From a virus, in the IMG/VR virus record IMGVR_UViG_3300045141_000199, positions 1 through 64,000 of that record: a DNA stretch of 64,000 bases; one strand, given 5' to 3'. This document shows, in pieces, positions 5,225 to 45,197 of this stretch. The notes below the pieces were generated by a model. The model ran no database searches, had not been told where the DNA came from, and saw only the letters and a list, made by a program, of their open reading frames with translations. The translations under genes were made by a program, and so were the position numbers. Numbering within the stretch: the first letter of the stretch is position 1; every line of letters begins with the position of its first letter.

Positions 5225-5888
5225 AAAGAATTTCTCAGTTAGCACGGTGGCGAAAGCCCCTGAACCGCCGACGACGGGCCTCAGCCTGGAAGTTACGGCC
5301 GGTGAGGGCGTACGCTTTCCTACGCCGCCATTCAATGCGGTGGTAGCTCCCGAAAAAGAAATCGCCACGCCCGAAAATGCTGAGGTTATTCGGGTGACGG
5401 CAATTTCTGTGAACAAATTCACGATCGTTCGCAAACAAGAGAGCAGCGTAGCTCAGCCAATAGCGGCCGGCTTCAGGATTTACTCGGGACAAACCGATAA
5501 GGTCCTGAAAGATATCGAAGCTGGCTTGGTTGGACCGGCCGGTCCTACGGGGGCTACTGGCCCGCCCGGAACCGAACTCGCGCTAGGCGTTGCGGTTACA
5601 ACTACCCCGCGGGTTGTTAAAAAAACCGACGCTGGCAAATCACTTGACGTAAACAGCGCCGTAACCGTGACCATCAAGGTCGAACCGTTCGGCGTAGAAG
5701 GCATACCTGAAGGTAGCGTGTTCGAAATTCTGAAACTAGGAACAGGTAAAGTCAAAATCGAATTTGTCAGCCCGGCAACTGCAATTCCCGTTGCTGCGAC
5801 TTACGAACTTAGGGAAACCGGATCGATCGCTGGTCTGCGGAAAATAGATGGAGCGAATAAATGGGCGATCAGCGGAGATTACGTCTAA
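5211..5888 (+). CDS. putative virion fibre protein with short collagen-like stretch
   Basis: N-terminal AEVIRVTAIS...TIVRKQE module; GPAGPTGATGPPG; C-terminal WAISGD. Confidence 0.6.
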   Translation: MPDSRKNFSVSTVAKAPEPPTTGLSLEVTAGEGVRFPTPPFNAVVAPEKEIATPENAEVIRVTAISVNKFTIVRKQESSVAQPIAAGFRIYSGQTDKVLKDIEAGLVGPAGPTGATGPPGTELALGVAVTTTPRVVKKTDAGKSLDVNSAVTVTIKVEPFGVEGIPEGSVFEILKLGTGKVKIEFVSPATAIPVAATYELRETGSIAGLRKIDGANKWAISGDYV

Positions 5889-9338: not shown

Positions 9339-9648
9339 CTTCGATATCTAGATTCTCAGGGCGCATTTGCTCGTTTATCCACGCGTCAAGATTTACTGTT
9401 ATTCGCGCGTGTTGTATTCTTACCCATCGTTGGAACTCGGCCGACTTTGCCATGCGCACAAACGCTTTCTTCTTGTTCTGAAGTTGCGTGCGCTCCTCAC
9501 GCGATTCGCCGCGGGCGCCGCTAGGCGAATGAATTACACGAACTCCTGTGTCCCGCTTGTCTTTATTCTGGCCACCCTTACCTCCGCAGCGGAAGGTCTG
9601 TACTACGCAATCTTTGATCGTGACGGTTAGTATCTTTTCACGCGCCAA
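9277..9648 (-). CDS. stand-alone class I release factor GGQ domain protein (ArfB/RF-1-domain-like peptidyl-tRNA hydrolase)
   Basis: FRCGGKGGQNKDKRDTGVRVIH...REERTQLQNKKKA; no codon-recognition domain. Confidence 0.88.
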   Translation of the reverse strand: MAREKILTVTIKDCVVQTFRCGGKGGQNKDKRDTGVRVIHSPSGARGESREERTQLQNKKKAFVRMAKSAEFQRWVRIQHARITVNLDAWINEQMRPENLDIEVLRDGLEPPTLPASTASSTN

Positions 9649-10249
9649 CGAAAGCCTCTGGTGAATCGGCCTTCAAATGCTCGGGCTCGTAACAGCCGAG
9701 TATGTAGCCATCTAAGAGCGCCTTCAAATTCACGGGGCTGTAATGTGTTTGCTCGACCGACACATTAATCTGGTTGGCGCTAAACGGCGTAAAGTCCTGG
9801 CCCTTTCCGCCATATCCGTTGTTGTGGATATGGCCATGCACGCGAATATAAAACTTGTGGTATTCGTCGTGCTTGAGCGGATAGTGCGCAAAGCTCACAT
9901 GGTAAAGGCGGTTGCCGGCCGTGTAGGGGAGCGCGAACGGCTTTACGATTTTGAAACCGCACTCACGATAAAAGCTGGGGCGCTGCCGATCGTGATTACC
10001 GAGGATCAGATACTTAGGCGAGCCCGTGAGATGTTTCGAGATAACATGCTTGAACAGGCCGTTACTCTTCCAGACGAGATCGCCTAGATGTAAGAGAGCA
10101 GCGTCCGGCGGGACAGCGCTAGCCCATTCCTCCATAACGATCTGCTCATGGTCTGTCGGCCTGTGGCAGTACCCAATGATGTTGTTATGGCCGAAATGTG
10201 AATCAGATGTGATCCATGTGCTCGCTGGATCGATAAGTGGTACGCTCAT
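9638..10249 (-). CDS. calcineurin-like metallophosphoesterase
   Basis: SDSHFGH, HLGD, GNHD, HYP, HGHIH motifs. Confidence 0.9.
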   Translation of the reverse strand: MSVPLIDPASTWITSDSHFGHNNIIGYCHRPTDHEQIVMEEWASAVPPDAALLHLGDLVWKSNGLFKHVISKHLTGSPKYLILGNHDRQRPSFYRECGFKIVKPFALPYTAGNRLYHVSFAHYPLKHDEYHKFYIRVHGHIHNNGYGGKGQDFTPFSANQINVSVEQTHYSPVNLKALLDGYILGCYEPEHLKADSPEAFVGA

Positions 10250-29562: not shown

Positions 29563-29995
29563 CAGTAAGGTCGCCTCCCTAGCGAAGTGGAAGGCCGCGA
29601 AGACCCACACGATTACATTACCGTCAAACACGGTAGTCGAGATCGAGATTCCCGATTTGCCTAACTTAGTGAAGACGGGAACGATTCCTAACGAGCTGAT
29701 CGATGTAGCGATCGGCGTTGCTCAGGGTAAGCAGATTACCAAGCAGGATATCGAGCAGCAGGCCGATTTCTATAACAAGCTATGTGCTATTACGGTGAAG
29801 GCGCCGGCCGTCTCAGAGGAGGATTTCGCCGCGGGCGCTATTCCGTTTGAGGATAAGGAGATGATCGTAGAGATTGCTACACGCCAACGCGATCTCGATG
29901 CGGTCGGACACCACTTAGCAGGACTGGAGAAAGTGAAGGATTGGCGCACCTTTCGTGGCCTCTCCCTCGGCTACCCGGATGATGAGAGTTTGTAA
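29537..29995 (+). CDS. tail assembly chaperone (G-like)
   Basis: AAGGAGG SD; position before the tape measure gene. Confidence 0.7.
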   Translation: MTAQNDTANSKVASLAKWKAAKTHTITLPSNTVVEIEIPDLPNLVKTGTIPNELIDVAIGVAQGKQITKQDIEQQADFYNKLCAITVKAPAVSEEDFAAGAIPFEDKEMIVEIATRQRDLDAVGHHLAGLEKVKDWRTFRGLSLGYPDDESL

Positions 29996-30167: not shown

Positions 30168-33100
30168 ATGCCAGAGAGGTTAGCGACCGGCGAGGTAGTA
30201 ATCAACCTCAGAGATGAGGCGTTGATTGCTGGCCTCGACCGGGCGCAAGCCAAGTACCACGCCACGATGGCGGCCCTTGATCGCGAGGAGGCGAAGATCA
30301 GGGTCGATCTCGATAGCAAAGGCTTCGATGATGGAATCAAGAAGCTGCGCGCTGAAAAGAAGGCTATTGAGAGTGAACTCCTAAGCATCCACCCCGACCA
30401 GTCAGACTCCAAGAAAATATCGGCGTTGATGAAGGAAGACCTTCGGACGCTAGAGGCGGAGCTGAAAAACCTTGAGTCACAAAAGTTACAGAACGATCGC
30501 ATTATTGGCGCTCGACGCGAATTGTTACAGATCGATGCCTTTCAGGCTAACCAGTCACAAAAGCGCTTCGAAACTGATAACAAGCTCCTAACCGATCGGC
30601 TACGGCTAGAAAAGCAGCAGGCCGCGCAGCGCGCGAATGAACAACGCGAACTGTACCAACTAAAACTGCCGGGTGAACGCGCCGAGGAGGAGCGCCGCCG
30701 CCGCGAGGTAACGTCTGACCGTGACCACGCGGCCGCCCTACGCGAGGCGGCCAGGCTCCGCGATCAGTTTGCTAAAAAGACTGACGAGATCGAGAAACGC
30801 GAACGCACGAAAACAGGCTTTATAGATTTCCTAAGCCGTGAGGAGAAAGTCAAAGTCGATCTTGATACTGGCGCTGCCCGCGCTGATCTAAAGCTACTCG
30901 AAGAGGAGATGAAGCTAAAAGGCATCGATATCCCTGCACACATCAAGGTCGATGAACGTGACATCAAAGACTTCTTCCTGAACCTGCCTAACAAGCTGAA
31001 AGCAGCCACAGGCTCGGGCTTCCGGGTACCGCTGCCATTCACTAGCTTACGAGCGCCCGCAGGAGCCCTAGCCGCGGCCGCACCATTGCTAGCGTCCGTA
31101 GCTGGTGGGATTACGAGTCTCGCTGGGGTTACTGGTGCTGGTGCCCTTGGCGCAGGCGCGGTAGGTGGTGGCGTGCTAGGAGGGCTCGTAGGTAACTTTG
31201 CAGGAATAGCGGCCGCAATTGTTCCAGTCAAGAAAGAAATGGAACAGCTTACGAAATCGACTGAAAAGTACGAAAAAGCTGTCAAGGAATACGGGAAGGG
31301 CTCAAAACAGGCTGTCATTGCGCAGGCTGAGCTAAACGAAGTTCTTCGCCATACTCCTAAATTACTGGTTGAAGGTCAACGCCAGTGGGAGGAAGTAAGC
31401 GACAAATTTATCAAAGACACAAGCGGTATACGTGACGCACTCGGGCGAGTAATCTCTGATGCAGCCAAAGCCGGCAAGGAGCTTGAGCCAATCGCGGCCA
31501 AGAACTCAACGGCGACTGCGAATATCCTCGCCGCCGGCTTTGGTCGATTCAGCCGTAACCTCAGCTCTCCTAAGGAAGCTGAAGGTCTAGATCAGCTAGG
31601 CAAATCTGCCAACGACTTCCTAAAGCCAGCACTAGAAGGCGTTGAAGGGTTTACTAAAGCACTGCTTCACATCGGAGAGTCGGCCGCCAGGCTGTTTGGT
31701 GGCCCGCTAGGCAAATGGATACAAGACCTTGGCCAAGATTTCGAAAAAGCCACGAAGCCGGGCAATAAACTTGATGAAAAAATCAGAATTCTCGGTAAAG
31801 ACGCTCAGGATGTAGGCAAGTTCTTCATCGCGTTTGGCAAAGTCATTACGACCGCGCTTGGCCTAGCAGCCCCTCAGGGAGACAAGCTAGCCAACACCAT
31901 GACCGGCGCGCTTACACGCTGGGATAGCAAGCTCAAAGACGATCAAGGGCGCAAAGGCTTCCAGACATTTATCCGCGAGTCAGATGAAGCACTTGAAAAA
32001 TTAGGCCCCGTCCTTGAGGCCGTGCTGAAGCTGTTTGGCTCATGGGCTATTGGACTGTTGCCGGCCGTCAAGACCGTAACTGAATTCTTCAAAGGCGTTA
32101 CAGACGTAGTAAACGGGCTCGGCAAACTGCTCGGACTACAATCAGGCGTTCAGTCTCTAGGTGTGCTGATCGGGGTGCTATTCGCCGCTAACAAGGCTTT
32201 AGCATTCGCGGCCGCATTGAGCAAGGTATACGCGATTATGAAGGGCATGGCTGCTCTTGGCGCGGCAGGCGATCTTACGGGCGCGCTGCAATTGCCGCTC
32301 GCTACCCGAGCCGGTGGCGCGGCCGCTAAAAAAGCTGAGGAAGACGCTGCTAAAGCTGTCGAGCAGAAAGGCGGCGGCAGTCTCCTAGCGAAGCTACTTG
32401 CCGGCGGCGCGGGCGCGGCTGGCGGAGGGATCGGAATCCGCGGCATCCTAGCGGCGCTTGGTAGCAGCGGCGCAGTCGTCGGTGGCGGTCTAGCACTAGG
32501 AGCGCTCGGGCTCCAACAGGTTACACATCTTGGCCCTAAAGGCATAGAGTTCGGCGCCGATACCGGCGGCTCTCCTCCTAGACATGCTGGGGAAGAACTT
32601 CACAAATTCCACGAAGCGTCGAAGTTGGCAGCTCAGGGTACCGGCGAACTCACCGGGCAGGTTCTCCAGTCTAACCTTACCTTCCACCAGGCCGAGCTAA
32701 GCGTCTCACGCGCCCGCGAAGCAATACACCTAGCTAAGCCAGGAACGGTTGAATACAAGGAAGCGATCCTTGCTTACAAGTCGGCCGTGTTACAGGCTAA
32801 CGAAGCCGAGCGCCAGCGCGCGACGATTATTAGGGAAATCAAGGCCGATAGTTCCGCTGGGGTTTCCGCAGTAAGAGCCCGTAAGAAGGTATTAGAAGAA
32901 TCGATCGCTGCGTCTAAGAACGCCTTTGCTGATCCTGAAAAGGAAGACCCGACATTCAACAAACGAGAAAAGGAACGCGCCGAAGCTGCTAAAGAACTTG
33001 TTGAATTGCTCAACAAGCAGGAAGTGGCGATCCTGAACATCAAGCGGGCCTACAAAAACCTTGAACCAATTACCGAACCTGAAGGAGTCAATGCGCTAGG

Positions 33101-40811: not shown

Positions 40812-41462
40812 ATGGGTAACAAAGCAAAGCTGAAGATGTTAGAAGCTCGTCTTGCGTGGCACCGCGGTAAATACAACTACCGCAAACGCAAGATGGAAGG
40901 CTGGCAGCAGTCCGAGAAACGCGGAGAATACTGGCTAGATCAGCACCGTAAAAAGCACAATGCTAAGGGGGCTGAGAGCGCTAACGCTAGTATCATACGT
41001 GCGCGAGCGGGGGTATACAAGTGGGGCAAGCTTGTTAGTGAAGAGGCTAAGGAAATCAACAAGCTCAAGCCTGCAATTGCCAAGCTCAAGCCAAAGCCGG
41101 TAAAAAAAGCTGAAGGCTTCTCAACTCCTAGAGCCCGTTGGAACCCCAGCGAACGCCCGATCGCCAACTGGATCATCCCTGAATTAGAATGGGCGGCCGC
41201 CCATGGCTGGACTGGTTATGTAACGAGTGGTTATCGCTCTTATCAGAAGCAGAAAGAACTTTACGAACTCTACCAGCGCGGAGGAAACATCGCAGCTAGG
41301 CCGGGGCAGTCTAACCATGAGGGTTACGAATTCCCTAAGGGAGCCGTTGATGTGACGAATTACAACCAGTTCAACGCCGTGCTGTCGAAAAAGCCAGGCC
41401 ACAAACTGCGCTGGGGTATCGTCATCGCAGATTACGTGCATTTCAGTGGTACCGGGCGCTAA
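40812..41462 (+). CDS. M15-like peptidoglycan peptidase (endolysin candidate)
   Basis: TSGYRSYQKQ...AARPGQSNHE...GAVDV...HF. Confidence 0.8.
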   Translation: MGNKAKLKMLEARLAWHRGKYNYRKRKMEGWQQSEKRGEYWLDQHRKKHNAKGAESANASIIRARAGVYKWGKLVSEEAKEINKLKPAIAKLKPKPVKKAEGFSTPRARWNPSERPIANWIIPELEWAAAHGWTGYVTSGYRSYQKQKELYELYQRGGNIAARPGQSNHEGYEFPKGAVDVTNYNQFNAVLSKKPGHKLRWGIVIADYVHFSGTGR

Positions 41463-42196
41463 TGTTTGAACCTAACGAACGTTATCGTTACGCTTATAAG
41501 ATAGGCATGTCCGGAGCCGACGTTTGGTGCATCCAAGTAGCCTTAAACGCCGCGGCCGTATCTCCTCAGCTTGTAACCGATGGCTCTTTCGGCCCGCATA
41601 CCAAAGTAGCGGTTGAGCAGGTTCAGACGCGCTTAGGGATCACGGTCGATGGCGTATGTGGGCCTGAAACTCAGCACAAGCTTTGCGCCCGCGAAGCCAG
41701 CATCATCCAGAAAGGACGTTGCCCTAAAGGCTTGCTGTTAGGCATCTGCGATGGCGAGTCAGGATCGATAATCCCTGCTACGTCCGGGCGCTACGGCAAC
41801 GGCAGTCGCGACTATGGGCCTTACCAGGACAACAAAACTAACCCTAATGAAGCTGAATTGAAGGTAGCCTATGCCGTTAACCAGCAAACGCGCAAAACGG
41901 CTGACAAGATCAGCGGTATCTATGCGAAATATCGCACGATGCCCGGCGGATCGACCGACGAAAAAGCCTGGAGGCTAGCAGTTCTTTACCACAACTGGCC
42001 GGCCGCGGCCGAAAAGATCGCTAAAGGTGAAGGTAACACCTGGACATACCAGGCAGACGGTCGTAGTTACAAAATGAGCGATCCAGCGCAATGGGTGAAA
42101 AACATCGGCGTCGCAGGGGTTTCCACCGGATGGCAGTGGGCGGAATTTTACATAGACTCAAAGGTGATTTACGTAAGTAGCTGGACTGTGGTATGA
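41462..42196 (+). CDS. peptidoglycan-binding domain protein (endolysin candidate)
   Basis: GADV...DGSFGPHT...VDGVCGPET PG-binding motif; GES/YGPYQ lysozyme-like motif. Confidence 0.75.
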   Translation: MFEPNERYRYAYKIGMSGADVWCIQVALNAAAVSPQLVTDGSFGPHTKVAVEQVQTRLGITVDGVCGPETQHKLCAREASIIQKGRCPKGLLLGICDGESGSIIPATSGRYGNGSRDYGPYQDNKTNPNEAELKVAYAVNQQTRKTADKISGIYAKYRTMPGGSTDEKAWRLAVLYHNWPAAAEKIAKGEGNTWTYQADGRSYKMSDPAQWVKNIGVAGVSTGWQWAEFYIDSKVIYVSSWTVV

Positions 42197-42234
42197 TTTT
42201 ACTAACTGCAAATTTCTAAGGAGTACACTCAATA

Positions 42235-42591
42235 ATGGCACCAGAAGAAAACACTCACACACTAGTACCGGACGCTGAAGAGCTTCTTGCGGAAGGTAAA
42301 GGAGTTGCTGGTAAGCCCAGCCTCGCAGGGGTTGCAGGGTTAGCTAGTTCGGCTAAGGCTTTCTCGGCTACACCTGACGTGCAGGAGTTAATCAAGGACG
42401 CATCGCCGCTCCTAAAAGAGACGAAGACGGGATACAAGACTACCGAGTTTTGGGGGGCAATCGCAGCAGTGATCGCCGATCTCGGGACTGACATCTCTAG
42501 CAAAAACAAGCTCATCGTGTCAGGCATTGCGGCGCTTTACGCGCTAGCACGCGGCCTAGCAAAGTCGGGCGTACCAACGTTTGAACGCTAA
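42235..42591 (+). CDS. holin
   Basis: GYKTTEFW followed by two hydrophobic helices; follows the lysins. Confidence 0.7.
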   Translation: MAPEENTHTLVPDAEELLAEGKGVAGKPSLAGVAGLASSAKAFSATPDVQELIKDASPLLKETKTGYKTTEFWGAIAAVIADLGTDISSKNKLIVSGIAALYALARGLAKSGVPTFER

Positions 42592-43121
42592 TGCACGATG
42601 ATATCGACGTAATCCTTGTTATCGAGGATGACGATGATTGCAGCGATTTCGCACGTTTGGCTAGAGGACTAAAGCATCTATCAAGGAAAGTAGACCGAAT
42701 TATGACCGACCTAACAGACCTACGAAAGGCAGTAGCCGACGTACAGGCTACAGACACAGCAGCAGTTGAAGAGATCACATCGCTAGCGGCTAAGGTAGAA
42801 GAACTTACCGCAGGCAATGTAACTCAGCCAGAAATCGACGCTATCGCATCTGACCTTGAGTCAGCAGCGACAGCATTAGCGGCCGCAGGGCCTAAACCAC
42901 CGGCTCCGCCAGTGGAAGAACCTGCGCCTCCAGCGGAAGAACCAGCACCGCCCGCTGAAGAACCCGCGCCACCAGTTGAAACCCCAACTGAAACTCCAGC
43001 AGAACCTCCGGTTGAACCGCCAGTCGAAACTCCCGGTGAAGCGCCAGCTACACCGCCGACTGAAGGTCAGGTACCTAGCGGCACGGTACCAGCCGACGAA
43101 GCTGGTGAACCTAGCGAATAA
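42591..43121 (+). CDS. acidic coiled-coil protein with Pro/Glu-rich tail
   Basis: EEPAPPA repeats; alternative start at 42702. Confidence 0.65.
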   Translation: MHDDIDVILVIEDDDDCSDFARLARGLKHLSRKVDRIMTDLTDLRKAVADVQATDTAAVEEITSLAAKVEELTAGNVTQPEIDAIASDLESAATALAAAGPKPPAPPVEEPAPPAEEPAPPAEEPAPPVETPTETPAEPPVEPPVETPGEAPATPPTEGQVPSGTVPADEAGEPSE

Positions 43122-43178
43122 GACTTTGTAAAGCTTCCTTGTCAAGTACGGCAGAAAGGAGGCGATCCATATCTCGGA

Positions 43179-43205
43179 GAAGGCCCGCTATTAGCGGGCC
43201 TTTTT
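43179..43205 (+). terminator. intrinsic terminator between convergent modules
   Basis: aaggcccgct-att-agcgggcctttttt. Confidence 0.85.
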
Positions 43206-43263
43206 CGTGCGTCAATTATGATGCTTTAACGCCATTTAGCGCCCTAATGCATCATAAATGATG

Positions 43264-44736
43264 CTAAATGCGGCCCATCTCAGAGCCAGTCCAAGCCTGT
43301 CGGCGCCCCATGAGCATTGCTGTAGTGTCGGCCTCGATCGTGGTATGAGTGGGAAGGCCGGTATCAAGCTGTTCCTCATAGATATCTACGAAATCTTCCG
43401 TTTCAGTTTCCTTGCGTTCTTCGGCCTGACTTACGGCATCGTCAGCCGCGATAGCTGTAATGTTCGGAGCGCCCTCTTTGACGATCCCCCAATGCTGAAG
43501 CATCTTGGCCGACACAGCATCGTCATGCTGGCCTTCTGGTGCTCCATACGTCCAGCGGCCGGCGTCAGTGATTTTGTAGGTATAATTTTCAAACTCATGC
43601 AGGGGTTCCTCGTAGTCCAACCGGACTACTCCCTGTTCCATATCCTTTGAGAGCTGCACCACCATGTGTTGCTTAGTTTTGGTAAAGTTGATAGGCACAA
43701 CATCGTAGCCGTCTGCTTCCATCTCCTCCACGATCGGATCGCCAAGCCCGGTCGAGTCAATTACTAACGTGACATGGGTAGCGCCTTCAGCTAGCAATTG
43801 TTTTACAAAGTTCCGCAGCCTTGCGCGCTGCATTTTCCAGGCAATCTCGTTGAAGCGATCGTAGCCACACGGCATCATGTCGTCACAGCTAGCGGCCGAG
43901 AACACAGTGAAGTCATTTGACTTAGCAAGATCAACACCAATTATCACGCGGCCTTTAGGTTTTGTTTTTGAGACGACTATATCGTCATGGAATCTAAAAA
44001 CAGCCCCAGCGCTTGAGATGAAGTCAGCCTCGACCTCCTGCTGATAGGTAAGTAGAGGCATGGAATCGGCCATCTCTCGAACCTCCTCATCTGGAATGAA
44101 GGGGTTAGAGCTGGTGGGAAATTTCCATGATCGATAGAGAGGCTTAGCGTCGTCCTGGCCGCGGAGCCACAGGTAGTAGAACCAGTTACGGCCGCGAGGA
44201 GTCGAGATCATTAGTGCCGAGCCTTCACGATCCATAAGCGTCGGACGGACAATCGTCTCCCATACACCCTTTGGCATCGTGGCAGCCTCATCGAGCACTA
44301 CGAAATCGACTCCCTCTCCAAGCATGGCCTCCGGGCGCTCGGCTGAATAGAACTCCATGCGCGAGCCATTCTTGAACTTCAGGATCACGCTTCGGCCAGC
44401 ATCAAAAGCCGAGTCTAGCTGGGGCGGGTGCGTTAATACGTCGTCGGGAAGCTGGCGAAGTACCTCTCGATAACCACGCTTTACAACCTTGTAGGTCGGG
44501 GCGCACCACCACACCATTTGCTTCGGGCGACGGCAGCGTAACAGCGCCTTCTTGGCGCCTATTACTGTCTTACCGAATCGTCGGCCGCAGCAAACGATCT
44601 GGAAACGTGCATGGTTTTCCATGATCTCCCGCTGGCCGCCGTCATGCGGAATGACAACCTTTTCTTGCAGCTCTAAGAGAAGTTTGGCGGCCGCGTCTGG
44701 ATCAGATTCAACTAATTGCTGAAGCTTACTGTCCAT
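43264..44736 (-). CDS. terminase large subunit
   Basis: GRRFGKT Walker A, VVLDEAA Walker B, STP motif, GVDLA...DFT and HDD nuclease motifs. Confidence 0.93.
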   Translation of the reverse strand: MDSKLQQLVESDPDAAAKLLLELQEKVVIPHDGGQREIMENHARFQIVCCGRRFGKTVIGAKKALLRCRRPKQMVWWCAPTYKVVKRGYREVLRQLPDDVLTHPPQLDSAFDAGRSVILKFKNGSRMEFYSAERPEAMLGEGVDFVVLDEAATMPKGVWETIVRPTLMDREGSALMISTPRGRNWFYYLWLRGQDDAKPLYRSWKFPTSSNPFIPDEEVREMADSMPLLTYQQEVEADFISSAGAVFRFHDDIVVSKTKPKGRVIIGVDLAKSNDFTVFSAASCDDMMPCGYDRFNEIAWKMQRARLRNFVKQLLAEGATHVTLVIDSTGLGDPIVEEMEADGYDVVPINFTKTKQHMVVQLSKDMEQGVVRLDYEEPLHEFENYTYKITDAGRWTYGAPEGQHDDAVSAKMLQHWGIVKEGAPNITAIAADDAVSQAEERKETETEDFVDIYEEQLDTGLPTHTTIEADTTAMLMGRRQAWTGSEMGRI

Positions 44737-45197
44737 TATTTCTTAGAGTTTTTCGCTAGGAGTTCTTGCAGCTCTTTAGCAAAGCCGGCGTCAGATTCGA
44801 TGGCGTCCATTGCCTCATTGATTGTGGAAACGTCCTTGGCACTGCCTTGAGTCTGAAGGCGTAGTGCTCCACCTAGATACTCCTTGCGAATCTTCAATAA
44901 CGTATCAGTGTCAAGTTCATCGGCGTTTAGCAAGCGTTGCTCCATAACCGAGTCCACCTTACGCGCCACTCGAATAACACGATCCTCTACAAACTTGAGT
45001 ACAACTGCCTTAACGATCGGGTTGCGCTTTTCTTCGCCGATCTTCGCTGTTGAGCATCCAAACAAGGACGCCATTTCCTTGTTGGTCATGCCGTTGGCAA
45101 TCGCCATTGCCAGCAGCTCAATTTCCTCGTCGTTCGCAAAAATGCGTTTGACGGCTCCGTTTATCGGATGGCGATGCGGAACAATGTCGTTACTCAT
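44736..45197 (-). CDS. putative terminase small subunit (HTH)
   Basis: GMTNKEMASLFGCS HTH; coupled to TerL. Confidence 0.65.
   Translation of the reverse strand: MSNDIVPHRHPINGAVKRIFANDEEIELLAMAIANGMTNKEMASLFGCSTAKIGEEKRNPIVKAVVLKFVEDRVIRVARKVDSVMEQRLLNADELDTDTLLKIRKEYLGGALRLQTQGSAKDVSTINEAMDAIESDAGFAKELQELLAKNSKK

Follow-up and report, generated by a model that had tools for sequence, protein, structure and literature searches.

Why should the strongest Shine–Dalgarno (SD) sequence of a phage genome stand at a place where no gene begins? The question is raised by the linear 89,773-bp IMG/VR virus record IMGVR_UViG_3300045141_000199, an uncultured soil phage (74% complete according to CheckV), of which the first 64 kb were analysed (64,000 nucleotides, hereafter the window). 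In a 142-nt gap between the end of a plus-strand gene block and the convergent large terminase gene, a 17-nt complement of the 16S rRNA 3' tail, AGAAAGGAGGCGATCCA, precedes an intrinsic terminator. Judged by sequence comparison, this element is neither a chance match nor a relic; it is a selected, gene-less SD in front of a terminator. Our tentative reading is that it acts in cis, at the 3' end of the transcript of the late (structure and lysis) genes, as a module that docks ribosomes and is not translated, an assignment to which we give a probability of roughly 0.4.

A Shine–Dalgarno sequence without a gene

The first-pass annotation of the window had described, behind the final stop codon of the lysis genes, a 16/17 match to the complement of the 16S tail that lacks a start codon and is followed by an intrinsic terminator, and these observations hold. 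Sequence and coordinates (Table 1) were verified, the sole mismatch to the reverse complement of the 16S tail being a C at position 43163. The nearest upstream stop codon is the TAA at 43119–43121, which is the last plus-strand stop and closes the structural and lysis block. From 43163 to 43205 the sequence is free of ATG, GTG and TTG, yet a near-cognate ATC is present at 43171–43173, and the GC core of the terminator begins 12 nt after AGAAAGGAGGCGATCCA.

No other site of the window lies within three mismatches of the 17-mer complementary to the 16S tail. Dinucleotide shuffles contained a mean of 0.10 sites at ≤3 mismatches, with at least one site in 10 of 100 shuffles, and by an arithmetic estimate about 4 × 10⁻⁴ sites per window are expected at ≤1 mismatch. 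The predicted duplex between the element and the 16S tail (−27.0 kcal/mol) ranks first among the 59,834 22-nt windows on both strands of the 89,773-bp record. The next-best duplexes of the genome (−23.3 and −20.8 kcal/mol) both belong to real ribosome-binding sites (RBSs) with an ATG behind them, and many genes of this phage have a weak SD or none. The exact 17-mer was found in nine stretches of IMG/VR, among which the contig G008 alone is related to the window. Most of the remaining matches, close to the chance number by estimate, are ordinary RBSs in which ATG or TTG immediately follows GATCC.

Conservation in related phages

Relatives were collected with the large terminase protein of the window as query. 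The first-pass annotation had suggested looking among related phages for SD-plus-terminator units that lack an open reading frame (ORF), and the module is indeed kept in nine lineages: the window, G008, L016, G005, L042, G004, G001/G007, G002/G006 and L043 (L044 is identical to L043). L042 and L043/L044 stem from a metagenome terminase scan that returned eight loci. Terminase identity to the window is 46–71% across these lineages. In G008, the nearest IMG/VR relative read (80 kb, terminase 71% identical), GAAAGGAGGCGATCCAT is retained letter for letter, whereas the flanking intergenic sequence, the tail of the upstream protein and the terminator stem have all diverged. The distant contigs (terminase 46–53%) carry variants, GGGGGTGATCCA in L016 and G005 and GGGGGTGATCGC in L042.

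The module was also recovered by a scan for the strongest 16S complement that did not presuppose the motif. It ranked first or second in eight of nine related records, with a strong hairpin after it: first in G000, G004, G005 and G008, and likewise in L016 and L042; second in G001, G002, G006 and G007, where the top site is another strong SD 48 nt upstream. The exception, G003, is 46% complete and has its terminase gene at the contig end. A covariance model trained on four copies and run over 739,899 bases gave full-length matches outside the training set in G004 (28.1 bits), G001/G007 (23.4), G002/G006 (22.3), L042 (18.0) and L043 (16.3). The element occurs once per genome and is also present in three short contigs. 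L013, L014 and L021 end ≤90 nt from the terminase gene and cannot be judged, and no element was found in L002 and L018 (1.5–2 kb of sequence) or in L025 (3 kb flank). Two ambiguous cases were not counted (L041, with GGAAGGTGATCC 75 nt before a hairpin, and L046, with GTGAACCATATCTCG but no GGNGG), nor were the low-scoring full-length model matches in L109, L052, L069 and L119, the one in L052 being located in a coding region.

Searches beyond this group added no members. Element-carrying genomes were absent among the terminase matches in the genome collection (23–39% identity, Anaerolineae and other metagenome-assembled genomes, MAGs), and the holin-like protein of L016, G005 and L042 as query gave no further contigs. 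Against cultured phages, a near-identity DNA search with positions 41000–45000 returned no match and a distant DNA search with the G005 element returned terminator-stem matches only. In Rfam, tRNAs alone reach the gathering score in the window, and seven other loci gave no match.

In the nine-lineage alignment, the near-invariant letters are GG.GG, followed by T, followed by G(A/G)TC, with TCT(C/A)G 2–5 letters further on; after the hairpin, a T-rich stretch and CGT..CT are conserved. Read as RNA, the core of the module is GGRGG-Y-GRUC, after which come RUC plus U, a covarying hairpin and a U-rich tail. Seven of the nine lineages have a T where the window and G008 carry the mismatched C, and the A/G variation at the third core position and in GRUC faces a U of the 16S rRNA at both places. 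Changes in the core thus mostly keep the pairing with 16S. As nine lineages keep the element with such compatible changes, both a 30S trap and an RNA-stabilising SD, two of the three functions suggested in the first-pass annotation, stay live, while the third, pairing to a small RNA (sRNA), is unsupported (see below). That 10–17 nt remained fixed while proteins drifted to about half identity is best accommodated by a partner that does not vary between hosts, as is the case for the 16S tail. Conservation stops at about the point where, we presume, the single-stranded part of this tail ends, and the divergence of L042 after GAUC agrees with this. Moreover, a module that is the strongest SD at a fixed distance from a hairpin in nine lineages with terminases of 46–71% identity does not have the appearance of a relic.

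The AUCU box and the hairpins

A second box is evident downstream of the SD. RUC followed by U is located 6–9 nt after GGRGG in all nine lineages, as AUC in seven and as GUC in two. From its first letter, the distance to the first Watson–Crick pair of the hairpin is 7–11 nt, and that to the uninterrupted G–C run is 10–12 nt. The hairpin itself varies in sequence with pairing kept (79 of 81 pair cells), six of its nine pairs occurring as two or three pair types. None of the nine lineages has a canonical start codon here, and the hallmark of an ordinary RBS, a canonical start 5–10 nt downstream that opens a conserved ORF, is missing. The first-pass annotation had named translation from a non-canonical downstream start as a finding that would speak against its proposal. 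A conserved AUC/GUC does stand at start distance, but the frames that it opens are unrelated: a single isoleucine codon before the stop, ISEKARY and ISLKPVT (each followed by a stop), a 15-codon frame, and long unrelated strings running through the terminator. With lengths from 1 to >45 codons and no similarity, no conserved peptide starts from RUC in the nine lineages, and hence no protein is visible to selection.

The plus strand of the whole gap folds at −64.0 kcal/mol into three hairpins (z = −7.56; 0 of 200 shuffles as stable), whereas the fold of the minus strand is weaker (z = −4.68). The plus strand is likewise favoured by the U-rich tails and by the G–U pairs in the first two hairpins, P1 and P2. 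A minus-strand mimic of the 16S tail was considered and is ruled out by the G–U pairs, the U tails and the location of the element 1–12 kb from the terminase gene in five lineages. A minus-strand ORF starting at 43170 (MDRLLS...) was also discarded, since its conservation ends at the motif.

P2 has the makeup of an intrinsic (Rho-independent) terminator, i.e. a GC-rich hairpin with a U run directly after it. Its 7-bp core stem is formed by GGCCCGC (43182–43188) and GCGGGCC (43194–43200) around a loop at 43189–43193, followed by five T at 43201–43205, and the base of the stem is lengthened by A–U and G–U pairs. P2 was not listed by a simple terminator scan of the window, we think because these A–U and G–U pairs consume the T run. 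P1, as predicted, would sequester the SD core, and one G–U pair favours the plus strand. P1-like arms, rich in C/U and paired with the SD core, are seen in the window, L016, L042 and G004, the A/G change in the core being matched by U/C in the arm. Relative to mononucleotide shuffles of the upstream 70 nt, z ranges from −2.5 to +0.8, with no excess in three of nine lineages; with support this modest, P1 was not retained as a universal feature.

The same two boxes in unrelated phages

IMG/VR was scanned with a 14-mer complement of the 16S tail, which is present in at least 118 stretches; 80 of these were taken as loci, representing 76 distinct sites. All counts in this paragraph hold among the matches listed. 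An ATG, GTG or TTG at 5–11 nt is found in 24 sites, ATCT or GTCT without a canonical start in 26, and neither in another 26. The true starts stand 6–9 nt behind the 14-mer in 23 of 24 sites, and the GGRGG–RUC spacing of the module falls in the same range. Clustering of related sites gave 64 clusters, 43 of them without a canonical start. ATCT occurs in the start-codon window of 20 of these 43 clusters, compared to 1 of 43 in a control window 25–35 nt downstream, and the next most frequent tetramers are overlapping neighbours of ATCT. The recurrence of AUCU behind perfect 16S complements in unrelated phages indicates that the two boxes are tied together. The complete layout of SD, AUCU and terminator hairpin recurs in the unrelated contigs L166 (AUC UAG), L181, L191 and L150. 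In the open-access literature searched, neither an SD before a terminator nor the association with AUCU was found described.

Two further groups of loci were encountered. The first is a phage protein family of about 230 amino acids (aa; MAQIDW...TDLR..RKEVI.S...RRGRP) in which the perfect 16S complement is read in frame as RKEVI, 25–32 codons before the stop (L126, L129, L135, L139, L140, L154, L156, L123, L193 and L197). ATCT or GTCT often follows the motif, and the next gene starts at an overlapping GTGA. The second is a conserved non-coding stretch of about 150 nt with GGGGGTGATCCAGTCT, which ends in a terminator-like hairpin and is located beside a Zot-like (filamentous phage) gene in prophage-like contigs (L053, L054, L056, L057, L064, L068, L071, L075, L078, L079, L081 and L083). 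It has no match in Rfam, and a distant DNA search with the L079 family gave none in cultured phages.

Proposed docking without translation and its alternatives

In the proposed docking module, the purine stretch would pair with the whole single-stranded 16S 3' tail and set AUC or GUC in the P site, where the initiator anticodon would be paired at two of three positions. The first two letters of RUC vary just as those of AUG and GUG do, and the invariant C at the third would mismatch the initiator anticodon. The GC core of the terminator, about 10–12 nt downstream, would abut the point at which mRNA enters the ribosome. The SD helix on one side and the hairpin on the other would thereby clamp a 30S subunit, or a complete ribosome that comes from the stop codon upstream, with no protein being made. 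The likeliest use would be to shield the otherwise bare 3' untranslated region (UTR) and the terminator from nucleases and so to stabilise the long late message. Binding of 30S, placement of AUC in the P site and the stabilising effect are what we infer. As an analogy, a report on Bacillus subtilis hbs mRNA describes cleavage in the 3' UTR that opens the message to PNPase (PMC5737220), which makes a shielded 3' UTR a plausible benefit. A polypurine stabiliser is reported to act on mycobacterial katG mRNA (PMC2358910).

Several observations weigh against docking. The known SD stabilisers act at the 5' end against a 5'-to-3' exonuclease, and a 3' position would protect little in that manner; protection would instead be directed at 3' exonucleases or the entry of endonucleases. 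Simple docking does not account for the invariant U after RUC or for the constant C at its third letter. The C that faces an A of the 16S tail in the window and G008 breaks the duplex into 10 + 6 pairs, and the SD core is partly paired in predicted P1, so that the hairpin would compete with 30S binding. Finally, many other AUCU-bearing perfect complements lie inside long ORFs, in all three frames, so that the role of the class may have nothing to do with 3' ends.

Among the alternatives, an action in trans survives best, although we regard it as unlikely. Here, the element would be a 30S sponge or a 3'-UTR-derived sRNA, a stable fragment that locks the anti-SD or pairs with a C/U-rich target. 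Decay of the late message would leave a fragment from P1 or the SD to the terminator, and translation would be shifted away from SD-dependent mRNAs. A complementarity of 12–17 nt far exceeds what initiation needs, many phage genes have a weak SD or none, and an S12 gene and many tRNAs are encoded by the phage itself, all of which would suit a sponge. 3'-UTR-derived sRNAs are laid out with a conserved single-stranded box some 10 nt ahead of a terminator, and GRUC..RUCU, conserved and single-stranded between P1 and P2 in nine lineages, would qualify as the seed. Still, a sponge would be needed in amounts comparable with ribosomes, and there is one copy per genome, upstream of which no separate promoter was seen. 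None of the targets in the genome scored above shuffled queries, leaving 16S itself as the sole candidate, and the AUCU box and the fixed hairpin distance would be superfluous.

A termination switch that senses translation appears rather improbable. A ribosome coming from the upstream ORF would melt P1, be caught by the SD and cover the 5' arm and the weak base pairs of the terminator, resulting in read-through; otherwise, P1 and P2 would stop transcription. The spacing in the window, where the base of P2 begins 4 nt after AUC and 13 nt after GGAGG, is compatible with such a switch. So is the position of the upstream stop, which is at or near the 5' arm of P1 in G000, G008 and G005 and 2 nt before the SD in G001/G002, but which lies 26–85 nt from P1 in L016 and L042. 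Further same-strand genes that could profit from read-through follow in L016, G005, G001 and L043. The downstream gene in these four has a TGnTANNNT box of its own 6–7 nt before the ATG, however, and need not depend on read-through, whereas in the window and G008 read-through would yield only RNA antisense to the terminase gene.

Real but unproductive initiation at AUC or GUC is improbable in our estimation. A start-stop or micro-ORF would hold a 70S ribosome or feed ribosomes into the terminated 3' end. ATC is among the start codons of NCBI table 11, while GUC is not a recognised start codon. RUC stands at the optimal 6–9 nt in all nine lineages, and it is directly followed by a stop codon in G008 and the unrelated L166 (AUC UAG) and in L150 (AUC UAA). 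Start-stop sites that bind ribosomes are known from Escherichia coli (bioRxiv 10.1101/520783). In six of nine lineages, on the other hand, the frame runs through the terminator, which implies terminated transcripts without a stop codon. The idea also overlaps with ribosome docking and does not exclude it.

It is similarly doubtful that the match to 16S is incidental and that the conserved letters mark a site for a nuclease or RNA-binding protein (e.g. a cut before C in single-stranded RU/CU) or a DNA regulator of the following promoter. Conservation does outlast the 16S complement, with UCU(C/A)G and with CGU..CU after the hairpin, and a TGnTANNNT box follows P2 in four lineages. A preference of RNase E for cytidines would fit, and a study on mycobacteria has this enzyme cutting just 5' of cytidines (PMC10641625). 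Against this, 12–17 nt of incidental match to the one host-invariant RNA are improbable, as is a rank of 1 or 2 among the 16S complements in eight of nine records. The motif shows no dyad symmetry, and AUCU also follows perfect 16S complements in unrelated phages.

Least of all do we favour the vestigial RBS of a deleted gene, for which L020 with GAAAGGAGGC, an ATG and an ORF in the same neighbourhood could be cited against the constant hairpin distance noted above, or a partner of the hairpin loop at 703–715 upstream of the S12 gene, for which a 9-nt complement exists at chance level in a region found in none of five relatives.

The proposed partner RNA and the host

The latter proposal originates from the first-pass annotation, which had noted that GAAAGGAGG, the core of the element, is complementary to 703–711 within an RNA at 697–768. 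The complement exists, but two matches against 0.75 expected do not exceed chance, so that the 9-nt match lends no support to a partnership. A genome-wide duplex scan with the element did no better than shuffled queries either (−26.5 kcal/mol versus −24.1 to −28.1 kcal/mol for ten shuffles). Furthermore, the 560–1180 region was not detected by DNA search in five relatives that keep the element, namely G008, G005 (100% complete), G001, G002 and G004.

The 697–768 stretch has features of its own. Just upstream of the S12 gene on the plus strand, it contains a 5-bp hairpin with CCUCCUCCUUUCC in the loop, resembling the 16S tail, and a strong plus-strand terminator follows at 733–768. Read on the minus strand, 703–715 is the fourth strongest 16S complement of the genome (−19.7 kcal/mol), with no start codon behind it.

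An actinobacterial-type host, as had been suggested from the 16S match, finds no support either. This 16S tail is common to many phyla, and the named terminase relatives point elsewhere or nowhere. They comprise a protein of an Acidobacteria-labelled MAG (56% identity), Anaerolineae MAG contigs (33–39%) and, among cultured phages, Tunturiibacter and Thermus phages (28–32%, best 32%). The look-alikes of S12 give no host, and the G+C content of the relatives spans 54–67%. Among sequencing runs, the phage was listed in one DNA run, possibly that of the source sample, and in no RNA run.

Gene neighbourhood

The features around the element are collected in Table 1. The plus-strand block of structure and lysis genes begins at about 14.7 kb and extends to 43,121. 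Elsewhere in the window, 27 tRNA genes reach the Rfam score, and the ribosomal protein S12 gene is identified by Pfam (8.8e-36).

Table 1. Features at and around the gene-less SD (positions in the window).
Feature	Position	Strand	Basis and remarks
VanY-like peptidase gene	40812–41462	+	Pfam; lysis genes
PG_binding_1 domain gene	41462–42196	+	Pfam; lysis genes
118-aa small protein gene	42235–42591	+	No Pfam match; marks the conserved gene order 5' of the element
Last plus-strand ORF, 176 aa, coiled N-terminus, Pro-rich tail	42591–43121	+	ORF list; weak LPP match only in Pfam
Predicted hairpin P1	43133–43163	+	GCUUCCU(UGUC) pairs with (GGCA..)AGGAGGC; minimum free energy and centroid folds
17-nt 16S 3' tail complement, gene-less "super" SD	43153–43169	+	16/17 match
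AUCU box, pseudo-start	43171–43174	+	AUC 8 nt after GGAGG, at start-codon position
Intrinsic terminator P2	43175–43207	+	Folds; G–U pairs fit the plus strand only
Third long imperfect hairpin	43209–43264	unassigned	Fold; between terminator and terminase stop; TATGAT, −10-like hexamer, at 43217–43222
Large terminase gene, 490 aa, convergent	43264–44736	−	Pfam Terminase_6N (1.1e-11) and Terminase_6C (2.7e-6)

The element is located at the end of the late block in all lineages. Homologues of the 118-aa gene were found by tblastn just upstream of it in G001, G002, G004, G006, G007 and G008. The 176-aa Pro-rich gene, for which G008 has the only homologue (44% identity), intervenes in the window and G008 only. 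In L016, G005, G001 and L043, the terminator is directly followed by TGC-TANNNT, with the ATG of the next gene 6–7 nt later. By its letters, this box resembles an extended −10 promoter from which a leaderless mRNA would start, and its position directly after the terminator suggests that the element marks an operon boundary. After the terminator, L016 and G004 have genes for small basic proteins that are homologous (41% identity).

The second strong SD of the G001 and G002 groups, GGGAGGAGGTGAT (−25.9 kcal/mol), is located within 29635–29682 in G001 (about 9635–9682 of locus L085) and is the same in G002, G006 and G007. Behind it stand a GTG and an Arg-rich ORF of 11 codons (MTEDRRRRGRS), the TAG of which is positioned 2 nt before the gene-less SD; the arrangement could be leader-peptide-like. 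About 0.5 kb downstream of the element, G001 has an ORF of 448 aa (30228–31574) that is RtcB-like by its N-terminal sequence only. In a protein search, the terminase matches P0005 to P0040 showed 61–89% identity. Four terminase relatives (P0007, P0027, P0029 and P0032; 815–821 aa) contain a LAGLIDADG-type (PF14528) insertion, which suggests an intein or a homing endonuclease within the terminase gene of some members of the lineage.

The third hairpin of the gap shares GA(T/C)GCTTTAA and neighbouring letters with G008 (L001, about 5445–5500, minus strand). It might be the start of an RNA antisense to the 3' end of the terminase gene, or the terminator of the terminase operon. Outside the window, on the minus strand of G000 at 85,000–89,300, at least six small genes stand in tandem, each after the same ACAGAAAGGGTGAGA ribosome-binding sequence.

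Comparison to known elements and implications

The closest known relatives are STAB-SD and similar ribosome-bound 5' mRNA stabilisers of Bacillus. Such stabilisers were reportedly described by Agaisse and Lereclus in 1996 and by Hue et al. in 1995, and the polypurine stabiliser is said to derive from phage SP82. Like the present element, they are SD-like, have an extended complementarity to the 16S tail, start no gene and are thought to bind the small subunit (a property that we can only suggest here, from complementarity), and at least one precedent is of phage origin. Examples are the cryIIIA leader, the polypurine sequence and the hbs, ermC and aprE leaders (PMC3997798). The extended complement is evident in our element (16/17, −27.0 kcal/mol, rank 1), as is the lack of an initiation codon, with ATG, GTG or TTG in 0 of 9 lineages and a conserved near-cognate AUC. 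The position differs. STAB-SD is located in the 5' UTR near the 5' end, where it blocks a 5'-to-3' exonuclease, whereas the element stands at the 3' end, behind the final stop codon and with 12 nt between it and the terminator core. It is further set apart by the conserved AUC/GUC-U box, the fixed hairpin distance and the partial sequestration in a hairpin.

Two other systems show a more limited likeness. Start-stop minimal ORFs were identified in E. coli by retapamulin-assisted ribosome profiling (bioRxiv 10.1101/520783). They too combine an SD and an initiation site with no useful product, and G008 and L166 read AUC UAG; those sites use a canonical AUG inside genes, whereas the element has a near- or non-cognate codon and its stop is not conserved. 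Regulatory 3' UTRs are the second case. The respective articles report an anti-SD motif in the icaR 3' UTR (PMC3868564) and pairing of the 5' UTR of hbs with its 3' UTR (PMC5737220). Both resemble the element in placing a conserved SD-related box in a 3' UTR beside a terminator, and both affect the fate of their own mRNA. These boxes are anti-SD-like, C/U-rich and pair with their own 5' region, while the element is the SD itself, with no partner found in the genome. What would be new is a conserved gene-less SD at a 3' end with spacing rules of its own and a second box, AUCU.

A few Gram-positive mRNAs are known to have gene-less SDs as stabilisers at the 5' end, and a conserved one at the 3' end of a phage late operon would show that docking of ribosomes at message ends is used by phages, too. 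This raises the question of how mRNA decay, termination or the pool of free subunits respond when an SD helix and a terminator hairpin hold a ribosome between them. The module is about 75 nt long and its partner is likely to be the 16S tail, which is nearly universal, so that the module is testable in vitro with ribosomes of model bacteria and the identity of the host is not needed. Possible uses are a compact 3' stabilising part for expression and a marker for the ends of late operons in uncultured phages. A bolder proposal, which we consider possible but distinctly less probable than docking at this locus, is that super-SD, AUCU and hairpin constitute a widespread, undescribed phage signal that clamps the host ribosome without translation, as a "parked ribosome" serving as 3' cap or sink. 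The exit side would then hold the completely paired 16S tail, the P site a start codon disabled on purpose (RUC, with U always behind it), and the entry side a stable hairpin. If true, this would be a new class of cis element and not a variant of the 5' stabilisers, and the same two-box signal inside the coding regions of other phages would mark programmed ribosome-holding sites.

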